A stretch of 64,000 nucleotides of DNA from a virus: IMG/VR virus record IMGVR_UViG_3300045988_170760, positions 1 to 64,000 of that record; one strand, given 5' to 3'. Shown one piece after another: positions 5,096 to 41,040 of this stretch. The position numbers and the translations under genes were made by a program. The notes below the pieces were generated by a model. That model saw only the letters and a list, made by a program, of their open reading frames with translations. It ran no database searches and was not told the DNA's origin. The stretch's first letter is position 1, and each line of letters opens with the position of its first letter.

Positions 5096-6109
5096 TTACT
5101 CCTTTCTAAAACAATAATTCTTTAACAATAATTCAAACTTTTCTTTACCAAAATCTGTTGGAGACGATTTACTTCCTTTAGGAAGAACAGTATTATTACC
5201 GTCATAAATACACCATATCTCTTTATTAGTATTAAATATACCTCCTTTTAACTTGTCACATTGAGCTAGAATATGTTCTGCACTTATACCTTCATCTAAT
5301 GCTATAATAACTTTTTTTACTGGTAGAGATTTTATTATCCTGGCTTGCTTGTCTGTAATTGTGCAGTTACCAAGAGCTAATCCATTATGATATCCATAAC
5401 TGTCTAGTTGCATCACAAATTTCTCACTTTCACCTATTATAACATAATCTGCTTTTTTTATTTCTTCTTGGTTCTCATAAATACCATATAAATAATTACC
5501 TTTAGCAAAATTCTTTAAAGTTTTCCATTTAGGGTTGTTTCCTATATTGTCAAAATTATATCTACCTGTAATTCCTACAAGGTCTCCTTTAGTATTAAAC
5601 CATGGCACTATAATTCTTTGACTTATATTATCATAATGTATATTAAATTTATATTGTGTATTAAAGGAAATATTATCTTCTAAAAACCTTATATTTGGGT
5701 GAAATATATAATTGTTTAAAACAGATTTAGGTAAGATATCTTCCTTAATATTTCTTTTATGTTTTACTTTTTTATATACTCCATTAAATATATAAGGTGT
5801 TTTTATATTATCCATATCTTTTATTTTTAATGTATCTAAAACAAATTTTATAGTTTTATTTAAATCCCAATTATTGTGGATACTAATAATATAAAACAAA
5901 CTACCTCCAATTCCTTTACTAAACACATATGTTTGTAAAGTATTACAATTAATAGCAACAGAAGTAGGATTGCCTCCCTCATAATAAGCACATCTTATTT
6001 CATTTTTCCCATCATAAAAAGAGATGTCATGAAAATCAGTTAACTCTAAGATTTTAATTATCTCGTTTGGATTATCGCTTAGATAATGTGTTAATGTTTC
6101 AATTGACAT
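5096..6109 (-). CDS. DNA primase (Toprim domain, DnaG-like)
   Basis: Toprim-like motifs VIIGESEKFV and VIIALDEG. Sits directly downstream of the helicase gene. No clear zinc finger. Confidence 0.6.
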   Translation of the reverse strand: MSIETLTHYLSDNPNEIIKILELTDFHDISFYDGKNEIRCAYYEGGNPTSVAINCNTLQTYVFSKGIGGSLFYIISIHNNWDLNKTIKFVLDTLKIKDMDNIKTPYIFNGVYKKVKHKRNIKEDILPKSVLNNYIFHPNIRFLEDNISFNTQYKFNIHYDNISQRIIVPWFNTKGDLVGITGRYNFDNIGNNPKWKTLKNFAKGNYLYGIYENQEEIKKADYVIIGESEKFVMQLDSYGYHNGLALGNCTITDKQARIIKSLPVKKVIIALDEGISAEHILAQCDKLKGGIFNTNKEIWCIYDGNNTVLPKGSKSSPTDFGKEKFELLLKNYCFRKE

Positions 6110-6124
6110 CCCTCCATCTCCTTT

Positions 6125-7591
6125 TTATAATCTATTCTCTTCGCCTACTTGACATAGACCTATTTCCTTCCATTTATTAAATCTAGGAATAAATTCATAT
6201 ATTACTGTCCTACCTGCTTCACCATTCCTACTCTTACAATGGAAAAATATTTTGTAATGTTTTCCTTCATTTTCTGTAATTGGTATTTCTTCTCTTATAT
6301 TTGTAAATCCATCTATATCCTTCTTATAATTATATGGAATGATACGTTTCCCTTCTTCTCCATTTGAAAATTCGTCTTTCCATATATCCCTAAACATAAA
6401 TATTTCTTCATAAATTTCAGATATTTGTTTACTGTTAGAAAGTACTCCTTCATTTAAATATCTTACCCTACCTTTTGTAGATAAGGCTATTTGTACTGGA
6501 GTAATAATTGCCACTCCTTCCTTAGATGATATTTGGAACAACTCTTTACTGTCATTTAAAAAAGATTGCCAAACAACATCTGTAGTTGCATCTACCTTAA
6601 ATGTATCATAAACAAATAATTCAAAACCTTGTCTTGCCAATTTTTTTATAGTTCTTTTTACATTTTTCATACTATAATCATATACTCTTTGAAATAATAT
6701 TTTAGACTTATATTTTGTATTAATTATTTCATTTGCTTTTCTAAAATATTCCCAATCTTTCTCATTAAAATCTAAATCTTTTAATTTAGTCCTAGTTATA
6801 TCCCAATAATCTAAATCTGTTGTCAATACATGTAAATATAATAAATCTTTAAAAACAATACTATCTTGTTCATTACTAATAACACATATTTTGATATCTT
6901 GGTCTATTAATGGCATTACAATATTCTCAAATACAAAACTTGTTTTACCGCCATTAGTATAACTTGCGAACATAGTAAGTCCTTTTCGTGGGACACCATT
7001 ACAAAAGCTATTAAGAAGAGGACAACTTTTTGAAAATTGTAATCCTATTTGTTCTCCACTTTGTTTACGTTGAATATCTTTTTCTGTATATTCTAATGTC
7101 TCTAATTTTAAATCATGAGTTATATTTAGTGCAATAGAATTTAATTGGGCATCTAAAAAATCTACTACTTCATCTGCTGTATTTAATTCAGAAAAAACAT
7201 TTATGTTCGTTGCAATATCAAATCCCTTTTTATCTAATTTTATCAACAAATTGTTTTTTACTAATTCATTATAATAAGCCTCTATATTATTCTCATCTAA
7301 AACATCAGTATAATCTTCAATAGATTTCCATCCGCCTTTGTCTTCATATTCTAATTTTAGTTCAGGATAATCATTTAAAAAAGATAATATAGAAATTTCG
7401 TCAAATGTTTTAATACCCTTTTTTACCATATTAAATCCTAGATTATAATAAAATTTTCCATCACTTGTTAAAAGGTCAGTATCTGAGTTTATAGGAAAGT
7501 CTCCATATAATTCTATAGGATTTTTATATAAAGATAAAACAAAGTTACCTTCTAATACATCTCTGTTTTTAGTTAAATCTAATTTTCTCAT
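6125..7591 (-). CDS. Replicative DNA helicase, DnaB-like
   Basis: Walker A is SYTNGGKTSF and Walker B-like is ELFVYDTF. 488 aa, adjacent to the primase. Confidence 0.75.
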   Translation of the reverse strand: MRKLDLTKNRDVLEGNFVLSLYKNPIELYGDFPINSDTDLLTSDGKFYYNLGFNMVKKGIKTFDEISILSFLNDYPELKLEYEDKGGWKSIEDYTDVLDENNIEAYYNELVKNNLLIKLDKKGFDIATNINVFSELNTADEVVDFLDAQLNSIALNITHDLKLETLEYTEKDIQRKQSGEQIGLQFSKSCPLLNSFCNGVPRKGLTMFASYTNGGKTSFVFENIVMPLIDQDIKICVISNEQDSIVFKDLLYLHVLTTDLDYWDITRTKLKDLDFNEKDWEYFRKANEIINTKYKSKILFQRVYDYSMKNVKRTIKKLARQGFELFVYDTFKVDATTDVVWQSFLNDSKELFQISSKEGVAIITPVQIALSTKGRVRYLNEGVLSNSKQISEIYEEIFMFRDIWKDEFSNGEEGKRIIPYNYKKDIDGFTNIREEIPITENEGKHYKIFFHCKSRNGEAGRTVIYEFIPRFNKWKEIGLCQVGEENRL

Positions 7592-9197: not shown

Positions 9198-10241
9198 TTA
9201 ATTAAATGGATTTTTTTCTGCATCATATTTAGCTATTTTATCTATACTTTCATAATTATCTTCTATAAATTGCCTATTAATTTGACTTTTAAATTCATTG
9301 TCTGTACAACTTATAGAAATATAAGCCTTACCATCTTTATTTAAAGTATTATCTGGTCTAGTTAAACATATAAATTCTTCTGCTTTTCCTATAACATTAT
9401 GCATATATTCCTTAATATCTCTACCAGCATTTATAATTTCAAATTGTATATCTTTTGGTAATGTTTCTAAAGGAGGCAATATTAATTGAGCTCCTCTTAC
9501 ATATTGAGCTTCCCACGTAGCTTTTACATATCCCTCTGATTTATCAGGAAGAAGATTTGCTTTTCTATGCTTTATTAAATCTATATGAGTTGCATTTTTA
9601 AAATCAAATCTATTAGTTACAAATTGTACCTGTATTGGAAAATATTCCATTCTTTTATTTGCATAAACATATTGTTGAATGTACGCATTTAATATAAATT
9701 TATTCCTTTTATCTCTTTCATCTAAAGACTGATAATTATAAAATAAATCAAGCTTTAATGTCAATTCAGGTCTTAATGAATTATCTACTGTTACACTTTT
9801 TATATTAAAATTATTATAAAGTTTTCCATTATTATAACTTATACTATAATCTCCTGATACTTTATATATAGTATTTTCTGATAAAGAATTAATCAATTCA
9901 TATAGATAATCCATAAAATCATCTTTCCAAATAAATTGTATCTTCTTATGATTATATTCTATATAATATTTAGATACATAAGAAACTGAATTTAATATGT
10001 CTTTATCAAATCTCTTTTCAAATGGCACTAAAAATTTTCTTTTAGTTCTATTAGATACTACAACAATTGCACCACTAGATAATGTATCTCCATACATATA
10101 TGCATAACCTGAATTATTTTCATTTTGTTTGACTAATAACTTAATAAATTTTTTATTATTGTTAGTTCTTTTTATAAAATTTTGTCTATCTGAAGGGATA
10201 GAAATTCTCCCTATAAAATCAAAAGTATTCAATAATATCAC
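9198..10241 (-). CDS. hypothetical protein (347 aa)
   Basis: ORF track. The start may be a TTG about 9 nt downstream, behind AAAGGTG. No motif recognised. Confidence 0.45.
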   Translation of the reverse strand: MILLNTFDFIGRISIPSDRQNFIKRTNNNKKFIKLLVKQNENNSGYAYMYGDTLSSGAIVVVSNRTKRKFLVPFEKRFDKDILNSVSYVSKYYIEYNHKKIQFIWKDDFMDYLYELINSLSENTIYKVSGDYSISYNNGKLYNNFNIKSVTVDNSLRPELTLKLDLFYNYQSLDERDKRNKFILNAYIQQYVYANKRMEYFPIQVQFVTNRFDFKNATHIDLIKHRKANLLPDKSEGYVKATWEAQYVRGAQLILPPLETLPKDIQFEIINAGRDIKEYMHNVIGKAEEFICLTRPDNTLNKDGKAYISISCTDNEFKSQINRQFIEDNYESIDKIAKYDAEKNPFN

Positions 10242-13384: not shown

Positions 13385-14278
13385 TTATAAACCAACTTTA
13401 TAATTTCTAAATACATTGCGAGATTTATTTTGTAGTTCTTTTAAATATATTTGTGTTGTAGCAGGATTACTATGACCTAATACATCTTGAATTTCTTCTA
13501 TTTGAAATCCATGTTTATACATATCTGTAGCTGCTGTCCTTCTTAGACTATGTGCAGAAATTGGTTTTGTTATGCCTGCTTTATTCTTTATTTTTTTTAT
13601 AGTAGTATCAATACTTTGAGCAGACATCTTTTTACCTGTATTAGATACAAACAAATAATTTAATTTAGTAGAAGTCCTAGTTTTTAAATACTGTTTTATA
13701 CATTTTGTCACAAAAGAATTAAAATATATTTCTTGCATTTTTCCACCTTTTCTAGTAACAATAATAGTAGAAACTTCTTCATTATTTTCATCTTTAAATA
13801 CAGTAAAAGTATCTAAAGTTAAATTTATTAATTCAGAAATTCTTATACCTGTATTTAAAAATATTGAACAAAAGGCTTTTTCTCTAGGTGTTTTGCATTC
13901 CCTTAAAAAATCTATAATTTCATCTTCTGTTAAATATGTTGTGTGTTGTGGATTTACTATTTTTTTTGTTGTTTTAAATAAATCACTACTAGCAATAATA
14001 TTTTTGTTAAAATCTAATTCAGATTTTGATAACAAAAATGTATAAAAACTACTAACAGCACTAAGTTTTGGTCTTATTGAATTTTCAGATATTCCAGTGT
14101 CTAATAGATAATTCTTCCATTCATAATAGTCATCAATATTTAATTCTTTGAAATCATCTAGTGTTGTAATTGATTTAAATTCAAATAATTCTTTAAGATT
14201 ATCTTTATATCTTTTTCTTGTACCATCACTTCTTTTTGTATTAATAAAGTTGTTTAAAATTTCATCTATATTACTCAT
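13385..14278 (-). CDS. Tyrosine recombinase/integrase (XerC/D-like)
   Basis: ORF track 13385-14311; start taken at MSNIDEI. Catalytic motifs AHSLRRTAAT and LGHSNPATTQIYL (R..HxxR..Y). Confidence 0.85.
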   Translation of the reverse strand: MSNIDEILNNFINTKRSDGTRKRYKDNLKELFEFKSITTLDDFKELNIDDYYEWKNYLLDTGISENSIRPKLSAVSSFYTFLLSKSELDFNKNIIASSDLFKTTKKIVNPQHTTYLTEDEIIDFLRECKTPREKAFCSIFLNTGIRISELINLTLDTFTVFKDENNEEVSTIIVTRKGGKMQEIYFNSFVTKCIKQYLKTRTSTKLNYLFVSNTGKKMSAQSIDTTIKKIKNKAGITKPISAHSLRRTAATDMYKHGFQIEEIQDVLGHSNPATTQIYLKELQNKSRNVFRNYKVGL

Positions 14279-14301
14279 ATCTCTTCCCTCTTTCTGTATA
14301 T

Positions 14302-14330
14302 AGTATAGCATAGATGGAGATAAAAGTCAA
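14302..14330 (-). promoter_or_regulatory. sigma-A type promoter (TTGACT-N17-TGcTATACT), leftward, drives recombinase
   Basis: Reverse complement: TTGACT (14330-14325), 17-nt spacer, TATACT (14307-14302). Confidence 0.55.
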
Positions 14331-17302: not shown

Positions 17303-18028
17303 TTATTCAACTCCTAACAATTTATCTATATAATCTCTATCTTGAGTGAATATAGGGATGTCTAAATCTATATCCCATTTCCCATCTTTTTTGATTACAC
17401 AACTGCCCCTTTTAAAATCTGTTCTATATTTGTCAAAATTAATATTATTTTCTTTCCATAATATTTCCTGTATTTCATTACAGTTTTTATTTTGTAATTG
17501 AGAGTGTGAAAAATATGCCTGACCTGCTGACTGAATTGCGTTACGTGTCGCATCCTGTTGCCTCCAAATAAAATAATTACAGACTTCTTCCTTTGGGATA
17601 TTAAATGCTCTACTGTCAAATGTAGCTTTCCATCTTTTATTATTAAATTTATAACTAAATCCGTTATATTGTAATTTATCTTCTAAAATATTATTAAATT
17701 TTAGTGTAGTTAAACTTGCTGTAATAGATATAATTTTAGATAAATTATTTTGGAACCATGCTTGTGTATCATTATTATCCCAGTCAGTTAATAATAAAGA
17801 TATCTCATCCGATTGAGTATATCCTAATTTACATCCAGGGATTTCTTTACATAACTCTAACGTAGTATTTTGCATCAATCTCATAAAATCTCCGTCATAT
17901 GGTTTTTCTAGTCCTTTTGTAAAAGTATGAAAAGCTCTTCCATCTATTCTTACAATGACAGGGGTTCTACATGTTAAATAATTACGTGTAACAAATTCAT
18001 ATCTTTTCATTCTGTCTCCTAATTTCAT
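17303..18028 (-). CDS. Thg1-like protein (tRNA-His guanylyltransferase family, 3'-5' nucleotidyl addition / tRNA 5'-end repair)
   Basis: ORF track 17303-18061; start taken at MKLGDRMKRYE after AAGGAGG. Family signature: DRMKRYE...PVIVRIDGRAFHTFTKGLEKPYD...GYTQSDEISLLL. Confidence 0.8.
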   Translation of the reverse strand: MKLGDRMKRYEFVTRNYLTCRTPVIVRIDGRAFHTFTKGLEKPYDGDFMRLMQNTTLELCKEIPGCKLGYTQSDEISLLLTDWDNNDTQAWFQNNLSKIISITASLTTLKFNNILEDKLQYNGFSYKFNNKRWKATFDSRAFNIPKEEVCNYFIWRQQDATRNAIQSAGQAYFSHSQLQNKNCNEIQEILWKENNINFDKYRTDFKRGSCVIKKDGKWDIDLDIPIFTQDRDYIDKLLGVE

Positions 18029-18029
18029 T

Positions 18030-18308
18030 TTATTTACCTCCTTTATTTCTAAAATGTACACTATTAAAAGGTATATCTGGAAATTCTTTTAAATATATAG
18101 TAGTATGCCATCCACCTACATCTATACGTTCTATAGTATATTCATGATTTAATTTTAAATATTTAGTAGCTATTTTCCTTTCATATGTCATTCCGTTATC
18201 TGGAAAAGCAAATATTACTTTTGAACCTATTGCAGTATAAATGTCCATTGTATCATCATTTTTAAAAAATTTATCTATATTTTCAAAATCTTCTTTACTT
18301 AATATCAT
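18030..18308 (-). CDS. hypothetical protein
   Basis: ORF track; abuts the Thg1-like gene. Confidence 0.45.
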   Translation of the reverse strand: MILSKEDFENIDKFFKNDDTMDIYTAIGSKVIFAFPDNGMTYERKIATKYLKLNHEYTIERIDVGGWHTTIYLKEFPDIPFNSVHFRNKGGK

Positions 18309-19942: not shown

Positions 19943-19985
19943 TATAAAAAAGAGCTATAATATACCTATCTAAGTATATTATAGC
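19943..19985 (-). terminator. Rho-independent terminator (leftward)
   Basis: Perfect 12-bp inverted repeat GCTATAATATAC/GTATATTATAGC (19954-19965 and 19974-19985). On the minus strand it is followed by CUCUUUUUU. Confidence 0.7.
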
Positions 19986-20026
19986 CCACTTGCTATTTTC
20001 TAGTTTTAAGTTCTAGCAAACTTTAT

Positions 20027-20185
20027 TTAATTTTCTTTATTACTTATTCTTTTTATTACAGTAGAATAAAAAGAATATCCATTTTTATTTTTTTTTATAC
20101 AAACATCTTTTCCTTTTCCTAATTCAGCAATTATTTTATTACTATTAGCAATAAATAAATCTATTAACTTATTTTTATTTTCCAT
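20027..20185 (-). CDS. small hypothetical protein (52 aa)
   Basis: My translation starts MENKNKLIDLFIANSNKIIAELGKGKDV and ends RISNKEN. AAGGAGGA SD upstream. Confidence 0.45.
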   Translation of the reverse strand: MENKNKLIDLFIANSNKIIAELGKGKDVCIKKNKNGYSFYSTVIKRISNKEN

Positions 20186-20232: not shown

Positions 20233-20448
20233 TTAATTCTCTTTATTATTTTTTATTTTTAGATATTTATATTTTGATTTATACTTAAAATGTTGTTCTA
20301 AGATATACTTTACTTTTTTATTGTTCGTTTTATTTACTCTATTACATATTGTTTGTCTACTTACACCAAAATGTTTAGCTGTTTCTCGTACATTTGCATT
20401 ATTTTTTAATATATAATCTATTATTACATTATTGTCAATATCTTTCAT
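20233..20448 (-). CDS. SpoIIID-like HTH transcriptional regulator
   Basis: The layout IIDYILKNNANVRETAKHFGVSRQTICNRVNK...ILEQHFKYKSKYK parallels SpoIIID: an HTH followed by a basic tail. Confidence 0.5.
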   Translation of the reverse strand: MKDIDNNVIIDYILKNNANVRETAKHFGVSRQTICNRVNKTNNKKVKYILEQHFKYKSKYKYLKIKNNKEN

Positions 20449-20461
20449 TTTTACCCTCCTG

Positions 20462-20680
20462 CTATAAACTAATACAAACTACCTCTCCACTTGATAACTC
20501 ATAATAAAATTCATCATCCAATAAATCTTCTCCAAATTGTTTTAAATCTATATAATGCATTATAGTATCTGGAATATTATATACATCAGAAATTTCTTGA
20601 TAAGCCAATTCCTCAACATCTCTATATATAGCACAAATTTCAGCAAATTCACTATAACTATAATCTTCTATAATATCCAA
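20462..20680 (-). CDS. ArdA-like anti-restriction protein fragment (C-terminal domain); reading frame continues upstream to a frameshifted ATG at 20777
   Basis: The acidic C-terminus NIPDTIMHYIDLKQFGEDLLDDEFYYELSSGEVVCISL parallels the ArdA tail (..NYIDYQAYGRDL...G.FEI). The same frame is open upstream (DLTEEQIDFLEENNEYDINLEELL). Confidence 0.45.
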   Translation of the reverse strand: MDIIEDYSYSEFAEICAIYRDVEELAYQEISDVYNIPDTIMHYIDLKQFGEDLLDDEFYYELSSGEVVCISL

Positions 20681-20811
20681 TAATTCCTCTAAGTTAATAT
20701 CATATTCGTTATTTTCCTCTAAAAAATCTATTTGTTCTTCTGTTAAATCTTATTATTATCTTCATTCAAATAATACATAATTTATTACCTCCTATTTATT
20801 TTATCACACTT

Positions 20812-20840
20812 ATTTTATCATATTTATTTTATATTGTCAA
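20812..20840 (-). promoter_or_regulatory. sigma-A type promoter (TTGACA-N17-TGaTAAAAT), leftward
   Basis: Reverse complement: TTGACA (20840-20835), 17-nt spacer, TAAAAT (20817-20812). Confidence 0.65.
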
Positions 20841-20844
20841 GCAC

Positions 20845-21195
20845 CTATACCAAATTTAAACTTATTTTTAATGCCTTATTTATACCTTCTAAATCTTTTG
20901 AACATATCTTACCAATTTTATGTAATATCTGAGATTTATCTAATGTTCTAAGTTGTTCTAATAAAACAACAGAATTTAATTCTAAACCATTTTCATCATC
21001 TACTGTTAAAGAAATATGAATTGGTAAATCTATTCTTTTTATTTTAGAAGTTAAAGGGGCAACAATAACTGTTTGACTATATTTATTACCTTTATCATTT
21101 GAAATTATCAAAACTGGTCTTATACCACTTTGAACACTTGTACTATTATTATCCCCAAGATTAGCATAATATAATTCGCCCCTATATATATCCAT
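20845..21195 (-). CDS. mazF: MazF/PemK/EndoA-family toxin (sequence-specific endoribonuclease)
   Basis: Similar along its full length to B. subtilis EndoA as I recall it: RGELYYANL, GIRPVLIISND.GNKYS.TVIVAPLTS, LPIHI, NSVVLLEQLRTLDK and INKALKISLNL. Confidence 0.85.
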   Translation of the reverse strand: MDIYRGELYYANLGDNNSTSVQSGIRPVLIISNDKGNKYSQTVIVAPLTSKIKRIDLPIHISLTVDDENGLELNSVVLLEQLRTLDKSQILHKIGKICSKDLEGINKALKISLNLV

Positions 21196-21218
21196 TTTTC
21201 CTCCTTTATTATGATATT

Positions 21219-21247
21219 ATTATAACATACAAATTCTATTTTGTCAA
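21219..21247 (-). promoter_or_regulatory. sigma-A type promoter (TTGACA-N17-TGtTATAAT), leftward, immediately upstream of mazF-like gene
   Basis: Reverse complement: TTGACA (21247-21242), 17-nt spacer, TATAAT (21224-21219). Confidence 0.7.
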
Positions 21248-21286
21248 GAATTTTTATTATTTTTTTTGAACTATTTTATATAATAT

Positions 21287-21433
21287 TTATATATCTTCAT
21301 ATTTCTTTATTTTTTTATTAATTATTTCCAATTTATCTTCCCATTTCATAAATGGGTCTATTGTAAATATTTCTATTGTCTTTTTATCTTTTCTTATTTC
21401 CCAATTATTACCAACTTTTACTGCATTTATCAT
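21287..21433 (-). CDS. small hypothetical protein (48 aa); weak candidate antitoxin by position only
   Basis: My translation is MINAVKVGNNWEIRKDKKTIEIFTIDPFMKWEDKLEIINKKIKKYEDI. The ATG overlaps the upstream stop (TAATG). Confidence 0.35.
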   Translation of the reverse strand: MINAVKVGNNWEIRKDKKTIEIFTIDPFMKWEDKLEIINKKIKKYEDI

Positions 21434-22074
21434 TATTCCACCTCTATATATTTATATGTCTGTTGTATAGTTTCTGTTTCTTCTTTTATCTTAGCATTAT
21501 CTAATATATATATTAATTCTTCTCTTAATACATCACAAAGTAAATCAAAAGATTTTAGTAAATAGTAACATTCTTCTAAATTGTTATTAATATCTTCATT
21601 ATCTTTACCATAAGCTGTATCTAAACTTTCTTTTTTTAACTCTTTTAATGTATCATAATCATAAATATTATCATCAAAAAATAAATCTAATATATTCATT
21701 CTTTTTTTGTATTGGTTGAAATCAGGAATTATTACTAAATGACCTCCTTGACTTCCGTTGAAAAATATATCTGTACCAGTCAATTCTTCAAAATCATTTA
21801 TAGTAACGTTTAAAAAATCATAAATATAATCATTATCTATATCCAATAACTCAAAAAATGTATTTTCTTGTTTTTTAGATAAATTTAAGTGCCATATTTT
21901 TACATTATTAGCAATACTGCGTAAACCATTCCAAGAATTCATTACATCATATGTATAATGACTTTTGATATATTCAAATTTTTCCTCTAATGTTTTTTCT
22001 TTCATTCCAGTATAAAATACTTTTTCTACCTTTCTATTATCCTTAATAAATTCTTTAATTAATTCTAATTTCAT
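21433..22074 (-). CDS. hypothetical protein
   Basis: ORF track; AAGGAGGA SD upstream; first gene after the promoter at 22104-22132. Confidence 0.45.
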   Translation of the reverse strand: MKLELIKEFIKDNRKVEKVFYTGMKEKTLEEKFEYIKSHYTYDVMNSWNGLRSIANNVKIWHLNLSKKQENTFFELLDIDNDYIYDFLNVTINDFEELTGTDIFFNGSQGGHLVIIPDFNQYKKRMNILDLFFDDNIYDYDTLKELKKESLDTAYGKDNEDINNNLEECYYLLKSFDLLCDVLREELIYILDNAKIKEETETIQQTYKYIEVE

Positions 22075-22103
22075 ATCAATTTCCTCCTTATCTTTATAAT
22101 ATG

Positions 22104-22132
22104 ATTATAGCATATTATTTTAATCTTGTCAA
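22104..22132 (-). promoter_or_regulatory. sigma-A type promoter (TTGACA-N17-TGcTATAAT), leftward
   Basis: Reverse complement is CTTGACAAGATTAAAATAATATGCTATAAT. Confidence 0.75.
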
Positions 22133-22175
22133 GTTTTTTTGTAAAAAATATGTAAAATTTATTTAAAAATGAGGT

Positions 22176-22208
22176 GGGCAATATTTTTATTAATATTATA
22201 TATTGCCC
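22176..22208 (-). terminator. Hairpin terminator (possibly bidirectional)
   Basis: GGGCAATAT / ATATTGCCC 9-bp stem with a 15-nt loop. U-rich tracts follow on both strands. It lies after the small ORF 22247-22417. Confidence 0.45.
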
Positions 22209-22246
22209 TTTTGTTCTTTCAAAAGAACTTAAAAAGTAAGATTATT

Positions 22247-22417
22247 TTATTTTTCATTTAAACCCATAGTTTGTGCATAGTTTTGAATTTCTAATATTAT
22301 TTGATTTTCTATTGCTGTATTTTTCTTTATGTTCTCTACAATATTAGCAACATCTTCTTCTTGTAAGTCTATTTCTAGCTTTTTACTATATTCTACTACT
22401 AAGTCTGCTAAGCTCAT
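22247..22417 (-). CDS. small hypothetical protein (56 aa)
   Basis: My translation starts MSLADLVVEYSKKLEIDLQEEDVANIVENI and ends MGLNEK. GGAGGTG SD upstream. Confidence 0.45.
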   Translation of the reverse strand: MSLADLVVEYSKKLEIDLQEEDVANIVENIKKNTAIENQIILEIQNYAQTMGLNEK

Positions 22418-22528
22418 TATATATCACCTCCTTATCCCCAATAACTTCCTTCTACAAATGATATATAAAAATTCTTATTAATTTCTTTTTCTATAAAGTT
22501 TTCAAAACTCATAATATTAAATCTCCTT

Positions 22529-23251
22529 TTACTCAAAATAATAATTTAAAAAATCTGTCACTATTTCTTCTAAGTTATATTCTATATAACTCACATAATC
22601 TCCCCCATTATTGATAAACTTATCATATAAATATTTAATAAATAAACTATAAACTTCTATTCCATCATCACAACTCTTTATCATATTATCTAATTTCTTT
22701 ATATATTGATTATCGTTAAATTTCCCTATTATATAAGAAAATTCTATTAAATAATAAAGGTCGTCGAATGTAAAATTTTTAAAATTCAAGTCCTTTTTCG
22801 ATTTATTTTCATTTAATTTGATATTTTTATCATTTTTATTATCTTTTAATTTAATAATTATATAATTTTCAGTTTCTTTAATACTTAATATTTCATAACT
22901 GTTTTTATTGTCATTTAAAATATCAAAAATATCATTTGCAAATTTTAATTCACACCCACATAAATTATCCATAGGAGAATTATATAAACTGTCAGCCCAA
23001 CATTCTTTGTAATCTAAACATTCTCTTTCTAATTCATCTATGAACCCATAATTTGTTATGCCTACAAAATTAGTTTCTTTATCTTCTAATTTGTTTAGAA
23101 CTTCACTGTACCATATGCTATCTTCAATATAATGTCCTTGTACCATAGGTATTAAAAATTCCATTGTATTATTCTTATTTATTTTTAACATTATTTTCTT
23201 TTCTTCTTTGCAATTTTTACAAACCTTATATAAATCATCTAAAATATACAT
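22529..23251 (-). CDS. hypothetical protein
   Basis: ORF track 22529-23266; probable start is MYILDD after GGAGGT. Confidence 0.45.
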   Translation of the reverse strand: MYILDDLYKVCKNCKEEKKIMLKINKNNTMEFLIPMVQGHYIEDSIWYSEVLNKLEDKETNFVGITNYGFIDELERECLDYKECWADSLYNSPMDNLCGCELKFANDIFDILNDNKNSYEILSIKETENYIIIKLKDNKNDKNIKLNENKSKKDLNFKNFTFDDLYYLIEFSYIIGKFNDNQYIKKLDNMIKSCDDGIEVYSLFIKYLYDKFINNGGDYVSYIEYNLEEIVTDFLNYYFE

Positions 23252-23274
23252 TTTATTTACCTCCAATAATATAA

Positions 23275-23445
23275 TTATAAATCTATTTCATCTAAAAAGT
23301 CTTTTAATTCTTCTAACTCTTCCTCCAAACCTTCAATGTAATATAAATCGCTTTTCCCATAACCACAACATTTTAATTTTCTTTTCTCATAAGCAATTTC
23401 TTTTTTTAATTCCTCAATTCTTTTTTCTATTTTTTTAGTTTCCAT
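23275..23445 (-). CDS. small coiled-coil protein with CGYG motif (56 aa); paralog of 25577-25747
   Basis: My translation is METKKIEKRIEELKKEIAYEKRKLKCCGYGKSDLYYIEGLEEELEELKDFLDEIDL. GAGGTG SD upstream. Confidence 0.5.
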   Translation of the reverse strand: METKKIEKRIEELKKEIAYEKRKLKCCGYGKSDLYYIEGLEEELEELKDFLDEIDL

Positions 23446-23457
23446 AAAAACACCTCA

Positions 23458-23994
23458 CTAACTCAATCTTTCTTCTAAATTATCAATATTTACAATTTTA
23501 AAATCATCAAATAGTCCACCTAAACAAATATTGTTATTTACTTTGTCATCTATTGTAATTTTAAATTTCAAACAAATATCTTTTCCCAAATTTACAATAT
23601 ATTTATAACAATTTTTATTTGATTTATCAAAATGTAAAATTACATCAACTATTGCAAATTTTTTCAAATCATTTATAAGTGTTTTTTCTACAAATTTAAT
23701 ATGTTCATCTGTAAATTTTAAAGTAGAAAACATAGTTTTTCTATAATTCCATATTTTTTCTACTTGAATTCTACAATATTCATTATCAAACTTTCCTTTG
23801 CTTTTTCCTTCATTTTTTAGTAAATCTAATACATTTTGTGGAATAGCCCAAGCATTTGCATTTTGAGTTAATTTCTCCCATATAGTATCATAAATTATTT
23901 TACAAGCATTTTCAAGTTCTTCTTTATTTTCAGTTTCCGTATCCCAAAAATCACTAACTAAATCTAATAATTTTTTTAAATCTTGATTATTCAT
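23458..23994 (-). CDS. hypothetical protein
   Basis: ORF track; first gene after the promoter at 24031-24059. Confidence 0.45.
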   Translation of the reverse strand: MNNQDLKKLLDLVSDFWDTETENKEELENACKIIYDTIWEKLTQNANAWAIPQNVLDLLKNEGKSKGKFDNEYCRIQVEKIWNYRKTMFSTLKFTDEHIKFVEKTLINDLKKFAIVDVILHFDKSNKNCYKYIVNLGKDICLKFKITIDDKVNNNICLGGLFDDFKIVNIDNLEERLS

Positions 23995-38691: not shown

Positions 38692-38859
38692 GTGTGTGAT
38701 GACAAAATTTCTAATGCTTGCTACAATTGTCCGTTTTTTATACAAAGTTGTTCATTTTGTCAATTAAATGATGAATATATAGATGATTGTATAGATGTAG
38801 TTAAGGAGTTGTATAATAATTATGAAGTTGAAAATTATAGAATTTATGAAAAATCATAA
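38692..38859 (+). CDS. small Cys4 zinc-ribbon-like protein (55 aa, GTG start)
   Basis: My translation is (V)CDDKISNACYNCPFFIQSCSFCQLNDEYIDDCIDVVKELYNNYEVENYRIYEKS. The SD is weak and it overlaps the ligase start by 38 nt. Confidence 0.3.
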   Translation: MCDDKISNACYNCPFFIQSCSFCQLNDEYIDDCIDVVKELYNNYEVENYRIYEKS

Positions 38860-39928
38860 GAACTGGGAAGAATTACTAACTAAAAAACCATATTGTTTAA
38901 AAGTTAATAGGCATAATGGATATATTTTATTGAAATATGACCAAATACATTCTGATTTTTCTTTAGATATTGTTAAAGAAGCTAGGGGAATTATAATAAA
39001 AGAAGAATGTTATAAGGTAGTATGTTTTCCTTTTATTAAATTTTTTAACATAGATGAAACTTATGCAGACAAAATAGACTGGAATACAGCAAAAGTACAG
39101 GAAAAAATAGATGGCTCATTAATTAAATTATGGTGTGACGAAAAAAATGGAATAAAAACATGGAATGTATCTACAAATGGATGTATAGATGCTTTTGCTT
39201 GTGATTTAGGTACTGATATATGTCCCTATAAAACTTTTGGGGAATTATTTATGTCCGTTTTTAATTTTAGAACTTTTCAAAAAATGAACCCAAACTATAC
39301 TTATATGTTTGAATTAGTATCTCCTTATACAAAAATTGTAGTAGATTATCCCAGAACAAAAATATATCATTTAGGAACTAGGGATAATATTAGTGGAAAA
39401 GAGTTAGAAGAAGATATAGGTGTCACAAAGCCAAAACTATATCCATTAAAGACTGAGGAAGAAATTAGAGAAACAGCAAATAAGTTACCTTTCAATGAAG
39501 AAGGTTATGTTGTAGTAGACAAAAATTATCATAGAGTAAAAGTTAAATCTCCAGCTTATGTTAATGCACATAGGTTAATTAATAATAATATAATAAATAC
39601 AGTAAAGGTACTTGATTTAATTATACAAAATGAGCAAGAAGAATTTTTATCTTATTTTCCTGAATATAAAAATGTATTTAAAGACATAGAAAGAAGATAT
39701 TTGAATTTTAGAAAAAGATTAAAGACAATAGAGGAACGCATACTAAAATTGAAAAAGAAAGCTAAAGATAGAAAAGATTTTGCTATTAAGTTAATAAAAA
39801 GAATGCCAGATTATAAAGAAATGGGTTTTATGCTTTATGATGATAAAATAAAAAATTATGAAGAATATTTGAATAATTTAACTACTAAAAAAATTATAGA
39901 AGGGATAGAAAGATATGAAAACATATGA
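38822..39928 (+). CDS. ATP-dependent RNA ligase (T4 Rnl1-like nucleotidyltransferase)
   Basis: Motif I is QEKIDGSL (KxDGS), motif IV is EEGYVVVD and motif V is HRVKVKSPAY. The N-terminal LKYDQIHSDF...EARGIII...KFFN matches the RNA_lig_T4_1 pattern. Confidence 0.75.
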   Translation: MKLKIIEFMKNHKNWEELLTKKPYCLKVNRHNGYILLKYDQIHSDFSLDIVKEARGIIIKEECYKVVCFPFIKFFNIDETYADKIDWNTAKVQEKIDGSLIKLWCDEKNGIKTWNVSTNGCIDAFACDLGTDICPYKTFGELFMSVFNFRTFQKMNPNYTYMFELVSPYTKIVVDYPRTKIYHLGTRDNISGKELEEDIGVTKPKLYPLKTEEEIRETANKLPFNEEGYVVVDKNYHRVKVKSPAYVNAHRLINNNIINTVKVLDLIIQNEQEEFLSYFPEYKNVFKDIERRYLNFRKRLKTIEERILKLKKKAKDRKDFAIKLIKRMPDYKEMGFMLYDDKIKNYEEYLNNLTTKKIIEGIERYENI

Positions 39929-40115
39929 AAAGCTTTATGCTGTAAGAGAAAAGAAAACAAAAAAATTAATTAGTAAAAGACATTCTAATCCATTTTTTAC
40001 TTACAAAAGAAATGCTGAAAGTCAAATAGAAGAAATGGAGAGCCCATATTGGGGATATAAAGAAGGAGAATTAGAAATTGTTACTTTTAGATTAGAGGAG
40101 ATAGAATATGAATAA
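39915..40115 (+). CDS. hypothetical protein (66 aa) between ligase and kinase
   Basis: ORF track; overlaps both neighbours. Confidence 0.4.
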   Translation: MKTYEKLYAVREKKTKKLISKRHSNPFFTYKRNAESQIEEMESPYWGYKEGELEIVTFRLEEIEYE

Positions 40116-41040
40116 GTTTTATATGATAGTAGGTTTACCTGGTTCTGGTAAATCAACTATTAGTAATGAATTGAATGGAGAGGTTTTTTCTTCTGATGCT
40201 TTAAGGAAAGAATTATGGGGTGATGAAAATACTCAAGGCGATAATACTTTATTGTTTAATGAACTTCATAAACGTATAGAAAAAGGATTAAAAGAGGGGA
40301 AAAATTGTATATATGATGCAACTAATATTAATGCTAAAAAAAGAATACAATTTTTAAATAAAATAAAAAATATAAAATGTGAAAAAATTTGTATATTAGT
40401 AGCAACAGATTTTAATGTATGTTTACAAAGAAATAATTTAAGGGAAAGAAAAGTTCCATATGAAGTAATTAAGCGAATGTATTTTAATATTGATATTCCT
40501 CAATATAGAGAAGGATGGGATAAGATTATTATAAAAAGGACACAAGATGAGATGAACGATTATGATATATTTAAATTTGTAGATTATTTAGAAACAATTA
40601 ATCATGATAATCCTCATCATTTACTAACAATAGGAGGACATATTCAGGCAGTTGTAAAATATATAATGGATAATTATCAATTTAAATTTGCAGGAGATAT
40701 AGAAAGATTAGAATGTTTATTAAGAGCAGCTTTATATCATGACATTGGCAAAAAGATTACTAAAACATTTATTAATAGTAAAGGAGAAAAAACAGAAGTA
40801 GCTCATTATTATAATCATGAGAAAGTATCTGCTTATATGTATATAATGTATGAACATACAGAAGAATTAAAAGATGTAGATAAAATTCTTTATATAGCTG
40901 ATTTAATTGGACTTCATATGAAAATGCATTGTTATAATGGTGATAAAGAAAAAGCACATGAAAGAATAAGAAAGTTGGTAGGACAGAGAGAATTTGAAGA
41001 TTTATGTATTTTAAATGAAGCTGATATTATTTGTGGGTAG
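40108..41040 (+). CDS. Polynucleotide 5'-kinase (T4 Pnk-like P-loop) fused to an HD-domain phosphohydrolase
   Basis: Kinase motifs GLPGSGKST, YDATNINAKKR and VPYEVIKRMY parallel the T4 Pnkp kinase. The C-terminal HHLLTIGGH...LYHDIGK...HYYNHE is the HD signature. Confidence 0.7.
   Translation: MNKFYMIVGLPGSGKSTISNELNGEVFSSDALRKELWGDENTQGDNTLLFNELHKRIEKGLKEGKNCIYDATNINAKKRIQFLNKIKNIKCEKICILVATDFNVCLQRNNLRERKVPYEVIKRMYFNIDIPQYREGWDKIIIKRTQDEMNDYDIFKFVDYLETINHDNPHHLLTIGGHIQAVVKYIMDNYQFKFAGDIERLECLLRAALYHDIGKKITKTFINSKGEKTEVAHYYNHEKVSAYMYIMYEHTEELKDVDKILYIADLIGLHMKMHCYNGDKEKAHERIRKLVGQREFEDLCILNEADIICG

Follow-up and report, generated by a model that had tools for sequence, protein, structure and literature searches.

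A candidate solitary MazF-family endoribonuclease on an exchangeable early-region cassette of an AT-rich Firmicute phage

A mazF gene without a recognizable partner

The first 64,000 nucleotides (nt) of the virus record IMGVR_UViG_3300045988_170760 (positions 1 to 64,000; hereafter the window) carry on the minus strand, at positions 20845-21195, a gene for a 116-amino acid (aa) endoribonuclease of the PemK/MazF family, assigned through Pfam, PHROGs, the PDB, and alignment. Within the DNA available, this mazF gene has no antitoxin that is detectable at the level of sequence, fold, or synteny. It is given about an even chance of encoding a solitary, catalytically competent early endoribonuclease that lacks a dedicated antitoxin and is carried on a dispensable, exchanged cassette. 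Because mazF lies in a swappable module without an antitoxin, an optional early weapon against the RNA of the host or of rivals is its most likely role, rather than one half of a classic toxin-antitoxin (TA) pair.

MazF is among the best-studied bacterial toxins and is usually viewed as part of a host stress or anti-phage module that is restrained by MazE. If a virulent phage indeed employs a solitary MazF offensively early in infection, this would be a Gram-positive counterpart of RegB from phage T4, and a toxin fold would have been recruited without its antitoxin. It could also provide a MazF with a new recognition motif and a natural resistance to cellular MazE, which would be a useful tool. 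The question is directly testable, because near-isogenic phages exist that carry one mazF allele (A), another allele (B), or no mazF at all.

Family membership, active site, and selection

The original prediction had recognized an EndoA/MazF-like open reading frame (ORF) by four motifs (RGELYYANL, IRPVLIISND, LLEQLRTLDK, and ALKISL), all of which are present in the 116-aa translation, and profile and structure searches lead to the same family. The protein matches Pfam family PF02452 (PemK_toxin) with 103.6 bits (cutoff 23.1; E 8.5e-30). This is its sole Pfam match at E <= 1, and it is full length, covering residues 5-113 of the protein and positions 2-109 of the 109-position profile. In PHROGs, the protein matches phrog_1936, "MazF-like growth inhibitor" (E 8.9e-30), and the best solved structures are those of Bacillus subtilis EndoA/YdcE (4ME7, 4MDX, and 1NE8; E ~2e-23), with an alignment that is collinear across residues 3-116. 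By homology to these structures, the predicted fold is very likely an SH3-like barrel homodimer.

R26 and T49 of the phage protein align with the GGVRP and AAIT segments of 4ME7. In EndoA (4MDX), Arg25 and Thr48 are the catalytic residues and Ser and Glu residues contact the RNA. All of 122 homologs keep G6, Q22, G24, R26, P27, N33, N37, T49, S75, and E80; the loss of the conserved Arg/Thr, named in the original prediction as a sign against a toxin, is thus not seen. Among eight mazF alleles from relatives, the ratio of nonsynonymous to synonymous substitution rates (dN/dS) is 0.13-0.21 in all divergent pairs, with dS up to ~1.4, which points to purifying selection. Since the catalytic Arg/Thr are kept and dN/dS is this low, the gene encodes a bona fide and probably active MazF. 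With EndoA (also NdoA or YdcE) and Staphylococcus aureus MazF it has PF02452 and full-length collinearity in common, as well as the catalytic Arg/Thr and the LLEQxRT(I/L)D segment, and the same chemistry is presumed.

An inactive MazF fold, one with a new function (for example, in regulation through RNA or DNA binding), or a hitch-hiker gene in decay might be expected of an accessory gene that lies in a recombination hotspot beside a gene scar and encodes a non-canonical loop. This is considered very improbable in view of the full-length ORF, the invariance of R26, T49, S75, and E80, the dN/dS of 0.13-0.21 over dS up to ~1.4, the presence of the gene in nine of ten independently sampled relatives, and the strong promoter and ribosome-binding site (RBS) that are kept.

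Searches for an antitoxin

The original prediction had stated that no antitoxin is recognizable, and hidden Markov model (HMM), fold, Rfam, repeat, and synteny searches, all negative, agree. The search covered the 64-kb window of a roughly 120-kb genome and included MazE/AbrB, ribbon-helix-helix (RHH), PrlF, Phd, and other antitoxin families. No match to them was found in Pfam (E <= 0.05-1) or PHROGs for the 48-aa ORF upstream of mazF, seven other neighbours, or 59 small ORFs of the window in coding orientation, nor in Pfam for ten neighbour proteins from relatives. PADLOC gave no defence-system match for MazF or its module; its weak and partial Csm4 match of the 48-aa ORF (E 3.7e-4) was regarded as spurious.

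An RNA antitoxin, another of the partners that had been suggested, found no support either. No Rfam family reaches its gathering score in 18-24 kb, where the lone match at E <= 1 is a Bacillus-plasmid small RNA (22411-22465; 20.2 vs 31 bits, E 0.81). A type III (ToxIN-like) array of RNA repeats with a terminator was not found upstream of mazF, the only tandem repeat near the gene being a 14-nt unit in 2.6 copies inside the downstream promoter, and there is no strong antisense promoter.

Synteny provides what appears to be the strongest evidence against an adjacent antitoxin. Across 15+ loci (numbered here with L, and gene families with F), no gene family is always adjacent to mazF. The upstream neighbour is the 48-aa ORF in the window, L013, L014, and L046-49, and elsewhere a 92-aa ORF (L001), an 86-aa ORF (L002-5, L009-11, and others), a 56-aa ORF (L012), or a 98-aa ORF (L006/7). 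They represent at least five families that are unrelated to one another, next to MazF proteins that are 63-98% identical. Two hallmarks of a type II MazEF system, an adjacent and co-transcribed antitoxin and joint inheritance of the pair across relatives, are both lacking at the mazF locus.

The 48-aa ORF (family F12; 21287-21433, minus strand) had been proposed as a non-canonical antitoxin, a role that does not fit its neighbourhood. Its start overlaps the stop of a 213-aa gene (ATGA) in the window, and in relatives the family always lies directly 3' of a gene of 213/214 aa, whereas it is two to four genes away from mazF in L001 and L003-5 and missing near mazF in L002, L009, L011, L012, L006, and L008. 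In the window, the mazF promoter separates it from mazF. As had been noted, it has no clear RHH or AbrB motif, with no Pfam match at E <= 1 and no PHROG antitoxin match, and HMM searches found no MazE homolog in it, the observation that would have spoken for a standard pair. Its single-sequence AlphaFold2 (AF2) model (predicted local distance difference test score, pLDDT, 91.6) has a beta-beta-beta-alpha topology that is neither RHH nor AbrB, and no PDB fold match is better than about E 0.9-0.95. The ORF is best described as translationally coupled to the 213-aa gene (F8; 21433-22074, minus strand), a member of the mosaic module without a family match, and a function as MazF antitoxin is disfavoured.

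Downstream of mazF, the commonest neighbour in relatives is F3 (67-143 aa), which is deleted in the window. One of its segments, NGYIAYEKLINL, resembled the MazE C-terminal helix, but a phmmer search against the PDB (E <= 10) missed the MazE of 4ME7, and F3, which also has no Pfam match, was rejected as a MazE mimic. The acidic ArdA-like protein encoded further downstream, also put forward as a possible antitoxin, is disfavoured in that role: in the window its gene has been cut short by an out-of-frame junction, whereas L034, a relative without mazF, has it intact. The 52-aa F1 (20027-20185, minus strand), the last gene of the mazF unit, lies 3' of mazF in all relatives that carry mazF and is directly adjacent to it in L006/L007. 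F1 has no family match in Pfam, PHROGs, or PADLOC and no PDB fold match, and its AF2 model (pLDDT 71) is a helix plus hairpin. Because F1 also occurs in mazF-less L034 and is represented by two database clusters only, its linkage to mazF is indistinguishable from general synteny, and it was rejected as a conserved MazF partner.

A type II TA pair with an unrecognized, rapidly replaced antitoxin, serving superinfection exclusion, abortive infection, or maintenance of an episome, has to be weighed against these data. Its candidates are the 48-aa protein in the window, the 86-, 92-, or 98-aa proteins encoded upstream in relatives, and the 67-143-aa F3 downstream. In L006/L007, the 98-aa ORF and the start of mazF share 11 nt, a classic TA arrangement; in most relatives, F3, the C-terminus of which is acidic, begins 15 nt 3' of mazF; non-homologous small phage proteins able to inhibit MazF are known (PMC10769878); and a tyrosine recombinase is part of the backbone. 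However, with at least five unrelated upstream families beside such similar MazF proteins, antitoxins would have to be switched with a freedom that is unexpected for a toxin under purifying selection, and no neighbour on either side matches an antitoxin family. F3 has been deleted in the window with mazF left intact and has no MazE match in the PDB at E <= 10, and in most relatives a promoter of its own, often with a hairpin, separates mazF from the upstream gene. A hidden antitoxin is therefore considered unlikely.

A self-contained transcription unit

A consensus promoter directly upstream of mazF, reported in the original prediction, was confirmed at 21219-21247 on the minus strand. It consists of TTGACA (21247-21242), a 17-nt spacer, the TG of an extended -10 element (21227-21226), and TATAAT (21224-21219), with a 12/12 match to the consensus. 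The sequence between promoter and ATG is AAAGGAGG, with the Shine-Dalgarno (SD) element GGAGG (21200-21204, minus strand) 4 nt 5' of the ATG, kept in an alignment of seven loci. The window has 18 promoters that depart from the consensus at no more than one position, compared with 3.0 +/- 1.9 in dinucleotide-preserving shuffles (0/100 reach 18), so the mazF promoter is more than a chance match. Ten of the 18 lie on the minus strand at 16-27.4 kb, ahead of small ORFs. Such multi-promoter, small-ORF architecture is typical of early regions that depend on the host RNA polymerase and suggests early timing for the mazF region.

The promoter is also found at -52/-53 in L013, L005, L009, L012, L033, and L042, and it is kept with mazF in both allele groups (68% identical) despite their differing upstream genes. 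Promoter, RBS, and mazF thus travel together as one self-contained cassette. mazF is a separate transcription unit, under the promoter of its own that the original prediction had described. From the promoter at 21247, the unit runs through mazF, a second promoter at 20840, a remnant ORF, a gene for a 71-aa helix-turn-helix (HTH) protein, and the 52-aa F1, to an intrinsic terminator with a 16-bp stem and a T-run (19952-19987, minus strand). The second promoter (20812-20840, minus strand; TTGACA-17-TAAAAT with TG extended -10, 11/12 match) follows right after the mazF stop and is identical in L013, where it stands ahead of a 72-aa F3 gene; in relatives, F3 is the gene that it drives.

An 11-nt inverted repeat, AGAATTTTTAT / ATACAAATTCT (21227-21237 / 21247-21257, 91%), flanks the -35 element of the mazF promoter. 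It is not kept in the promoter of the second allele and is unremarkable in DNA of 22% GC; it probably arose by chance in AT-rich sequence, but could be an operator.

A dispensable and exchanged module

In the window, mazF is part of a mosaic module of ~3.0 kb (20752-23782, minus strand) that has no counterpart in the near-identical L034. The two sequences are 99.6-99.7% identical from 27000 to 23783 and from 20751 to 16070 (blastn), with the 3.03 kb between them absent from L034; tblastn of MazF against L034 gave no match. To sample relatives independently of MazF, contigs with enough upstream sequence were collected through the Thg1-like gene, and mazF is carried by 9/10 of them. L033 and L042 have a backbone at least 98.8% identical to the window and a MazF allele that is only 68% identical at the protein level. 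Conversely, the module of the window resembles the one in L013/L046-type phages, and the mazF alleles differ by two amino acids and no synonymous changes, although the backbones are no more than 81-85% identical.

These comparisons suggest that mazF is prevalent yet dispensable and that its alleles are exchanged between backbones. Present in nine of ten relatives and missing from one that is 99.7% identical, it is best described as a prevalent but dispensable early-region cassette. Both hallmarks of an accessory cassette are found, namely a promoter of its own and presence/absence together with allelic polymorphism among near-identical genomes.

The right-hand breakpoint of the module, at ~20751, lies inside the ArdA-like gene, where the first 10-11 codons of F3 are joined to the 3' two-thirds of that gene. 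This junction falls at the border of the mazF module as delimited by comparison with L034, in which the ArdA-like gene is intact; the ArdA-like fragment is therefore a scar left by recombination and probably a pseudogene. An exact 43-mer of the deletion junction had no match in IMG/VR or JGI metagenomes, and a search of IMG/VR for relatives through a neighbouring marker yielded only one contig, already known. Four contigs (L034, L037, L038, and L043) start or end 0.05-1.1 kb from mazF, corresponding to ~20.7-24 kb of the window, which is consistent with assembly breaks caused by strain heterogeneity in a hypervariable early region.

A phage-restricted MazF subclade

The MazF of the window belongs to a distinct subclade formed by its 21 nearest proteins in the database, which are at least 59% identical and in several cases encoded on ~120-kb contigs. 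The GSEQGG beta1-beta2 loop, which is present in 92/99 other homologs, is found in 0/21 of its members, and Q32S, A47P, I48L, K54R, K56D, D74N, and an inserted Asn69 are subclade-wide changes. No relative above 48% identity was found among 185,579 species-representative genomes, which suggests that the lineage is phage-restricted. Unlike EndoA, the phage MazF thus has a remodelled beta1-beta2 loop, Q32S, A47P, K56D, and a one-residue insertion, and its gene has, in contrast to EndoA systems, no upstream RHH/AbrB MazE gene or conserved partner, and a consensus promoter of its own. Because the loop and these residues are remodelled, neither specificity for UACAU nor compatibility with MazE can be transferred from EndoA.

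It has been considered that the phage protein might act through the host's own MazEF, being checked by host MazE, titrating it, or forming heterodimers with host MazF. Nearly all Firmicutes carry an EndoA-type mazEF, phages are restricted by host MazF where it is not inhibited (PMC10769878), and the phage MazF is 45-55% identical to cellular EndoA homologs. However, the loop and about ten positions that are near-invariant in cellular proteins are changed in the phage lineage, which argues against cross-recognition, and a pure decoy would not need invariant catalytic residues under purifying selection. Interference of this kind is quite improbable. A further reading, considered somewhat unlikely, is that the subclade represents domesticated, antitoxin-free early MazF proteins used for host takeover or inter-element warfare, with a remodelled loop that confers a new specificity and/or deafness to host MazE. 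They would be encoded on a promoter-bearing cassette that ~120-kb phages trade among themselves, with the fast allelic turnover of an arms-race gene, and the RNA-repair kit of the phage may selectively heal collateral damage to RNAs that it requires.

The nearest cellular or mobile-element homologs are 42-48% identical (L020-L028, on Lachnospiraceae, Enterocloster, and other genome contigs). These loci have no obvious upstream antitoxin ORF; a 66-aa ORF (MKCREF[IV]YVGEPAP...) is conserved 3' of the mazF homolog, along with a large serine recombinase, and the arrangement is possibly another non-canonical MazF on a mobile element. A cognate MazE probe was not obtained from the nearest cellular loci; the 74-aa ORF upstream in L015 has no Pfam match.

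Proposed mode of action and comparison with known systems

Of the readings in the original prediction, early host shutoff is still the most plausible. In the favoured model of a solitary early nuclease, host RNA polymerase would fire from the consensus promoter, visibly of sigma-A/sigma-70 type, upon infection, presumably early. MazF would then build up without a dedicated antitoxin and, by analogy with the chemistry of its family, recognize a short motif in single-stranded RNA and cut there, so that the products would end in a 2',3'-cyclic phosphate and a 5'-OH. Messages of the host or of competing mobile elements would be degraded to the benefit of the phage, and no antitoxin would be required because the infected cell is doomed anyway. 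The gene would in this way raise fitness without being essential.

The closest functional analogue is RegB of T4, an early-promoter gene for a sequence-specific endoribonuclease of toxin fold with no known antitoxin, which is non-essential, variably present among relatives, and regulates phage RNAs including its own (PMC3014915). RegB is not homologous to the phage MazF, having a RelE/YoeB-like fold with two catalytic His residues, and the Pfam scan at E <= 1, which returned PemK_toxin only, gave no indication of RegB homology. RegB also requires ribosomal protein S1 and cuts GGAG.

EndoA-type MazFs cleave U^ACAU (PMC5408214), and phage transcripts had been predicted to be depleted in the cleavage motif. 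In 109 crude coding sequences (CDS; 54.9 kb, sense strand), TACAT occurs 50 times. The expected number is 72.7 by synonymous-codon shuffle (z -3.6, 8th of 609 5-mers), 68.2 by a third-order Markov estimate, and 59.4 under a dinucleotide-preserving shuffle (z -1.95, rank 38/640, with 21/400 shuffles as low). The count is thus below all these expectations, but only marginally so under the dinucleotide null, and UACAU avoidance in phage genes is at most weak. As z shrank from -3.6 to -1.95, motif avoidance was dropped as a form of immunity. The reverse complement is not depleted, the early arm has 27 sites in 25.4 kb and the late arm 23 in 29.5 kb, about the same frequency, one site lies inside mazF itself, and no other strand-specific 4-6-mer stood out except SD-like and poly-A words.

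These counts also bear on a RegB-like regulatory role, in which MazF would mainly cleave early phage transcripts, or specific structured RNAs of host or phage (such as rRNA or tRNA), and time the early-to-late switch instead of a global shutoff of host mRNA. mazF lies in the early region under an early-type promoter, UACAU is about equally frequent in both arms and present in mazF, making phage RNAs potential substrates, and RegB itself acts on phage RNAs and autoregulates (PMC3014915). The RNA ligase, polynucleotide kinase, and Thg1-like enzyme of the phage could heal the 2',3'-cyclic phosphate and 5'-OH ends. A gene that is dispensable and allelically replaceable on one backbone is nevertheless a poor fit to a hard-wired role, and the beta1-beta2 loop is unlike that of UACAU-specific enzymes, so UACAU may not be the motif at all. 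Such regulation is considered improbable.

Several points weigh against the preferred reading of a solitary nuclease. With 64 kb of the ~120-kb genome searched, an unlinked antitoxin is possible, and negative HMM and fold searches are no proof of absence because AimX and YosL neutralize MazF without MazE homology. Because 50 UACAU sites remain in its genes, the phage would cut its own RNA unless the specificity of its MazF differs. Finally, a recombinase in the backbone makes a temperate or episomal lifestyle possible, for which an unopposed MazF would be a problem.

Other phage-borne MazF proteins provide a further comparison. Genes of phrog_1936 in Firmicute phages, 39-48% identical to the present MazF and found in 102 phage records, have no annotated antitoxin alongside. 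Carriers include Enterocloster phage PMBT24, Psychrobacillus phage Perkons, Lactobacillus phages Maenad, P1, and P2, and staphylococcal cluster B prophages. Their contexts differ, with the gene in the tail/lysis region in PMBT24 and in temperate phages in the case of Perkons and the staphylococcal phages. Compared with these genes, all below 50% identity, the present lineage is a clade of its own in ~120-kb phages with a conserved private promoter. Phage-borne MazF homologs are listed among morons or virulence determinants, with no functional test behind the label (PMC6507118), and no functional study of one was found in the literature searched. Antitoxin-less phage MazF homologs are therefore already known, and the present lineage is a further variant rather than a new kind. 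The small non-MazE proteins AimX and YosL of phi3T/SPbeta also inhibit MazF (PMC10769878), but they target host MazF and share the MazE C-terminal helix motif, whereas here the phage itself encodes MazF; no AimX/YosL-like protein was recognized in the window.

Other genes near mazF

Behind a strong RBS, the second promoter drives an 11-codon remnant ORF (MYYLNEDNNKI*; 20743-20778, minus strand), the 5' end of F3, for which the F3 of L001 (MHYIDEDNNEILTEKE) serves as comparison. The ArdA-like 3' part (F13; 20462-20749, minus strand) is out of frame with this remnant, and its longest startable ORF has 72 aa from a TTG at 20680. Of the earlier description of an ArdA-like fragment with its own promoter, the resemblance to ArdA holds, but it is weak (E 3.3e-4; 21.7 bits against a Pfam gathering score of 27), and the promoter does not serve the fragment. 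The full 116-aa gene in L001, L008, L013, L033, and L034 matches PF07275.

The next gene of the unit encodes a SpoIIID-like HTH protein of 71 aa (F4; 20233-20448, minus strand; PF12116, E 3.5e-7); it is present in mazF-less L034 and missing near mazF in L006. In L006, the most divergent relative, the genes closely 3' of mazF include a ribosomal protein S6-like ORF (PF01250) and one for an HD_4 domain protein (5757-6684, 9810-10235), both uncommon as phage cargo.

Genome and phage type

The source of the window is best explained as a roughly 120-kb AT-rich Firmicute phage with mazF in a hypervariable, multi-promoter early region. The window has a GC content of 21-29% and two divergent gene arms that switch at ~28-31 kb, and it encodes a DnaB-like helicase, a primase, exonucleases, a portal protein, an M23-type peptidase, tRNA-Pro (47538-47614), and tRNA-Thr (47664-47738). 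No near-identical DNA was found among 50,697 deposited phages (INPHARED). Among named phages, Thomasclavelia phages TR-TP1/TP2 come nearest in their portal protein (40%), followed at a greater distance by Firmicute phages of 100-135 kb. The roughly 20 contigs inspected are all phage-only, and many are stand-alone sequences of 115-122 kb.

A tyrosine recombinase (13385-14311, minus strand; Phage_integrase plus SAM-like N domain, E 1e-35) is kept in the backbone of all relatives, where it adjoins 3D-domain, aminotransferase, HSP20, and ERF genes. None of the contigs shows an integrated copy or a bacterial flank, and the enzyme may resolve dimers instead of mediating lysogeny.

The RNA-repair genes encode a T4 Rnl1-like RNA ligase (38822-39928, plus strand), a polynucleotide kinase (40108-41040, plus strand), and a Thg1-like tRNA-His guanylyltransferase (17303-18061, minus strand). 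The 2',3'-cyclic phosphate and 5'-OH ends that result from cleavage by MazF-type nucleases are exactly those repaired by a kinase together with a ligase; a functional tie between this kit and mazF is speculative.

GATC occurs 0 times in the 64-kb window, with 17 expected in CDS (dinucleotide-preserving shuffle), and GAATC and GATTC occur 0 times, with 21-26 expected (synonymous shuffle), while three GA(C/G)TC sites are left. This is a strong signature of restriction-site avoidance for enzymes of the DpnII/Sau3AI type and the HinfI type.

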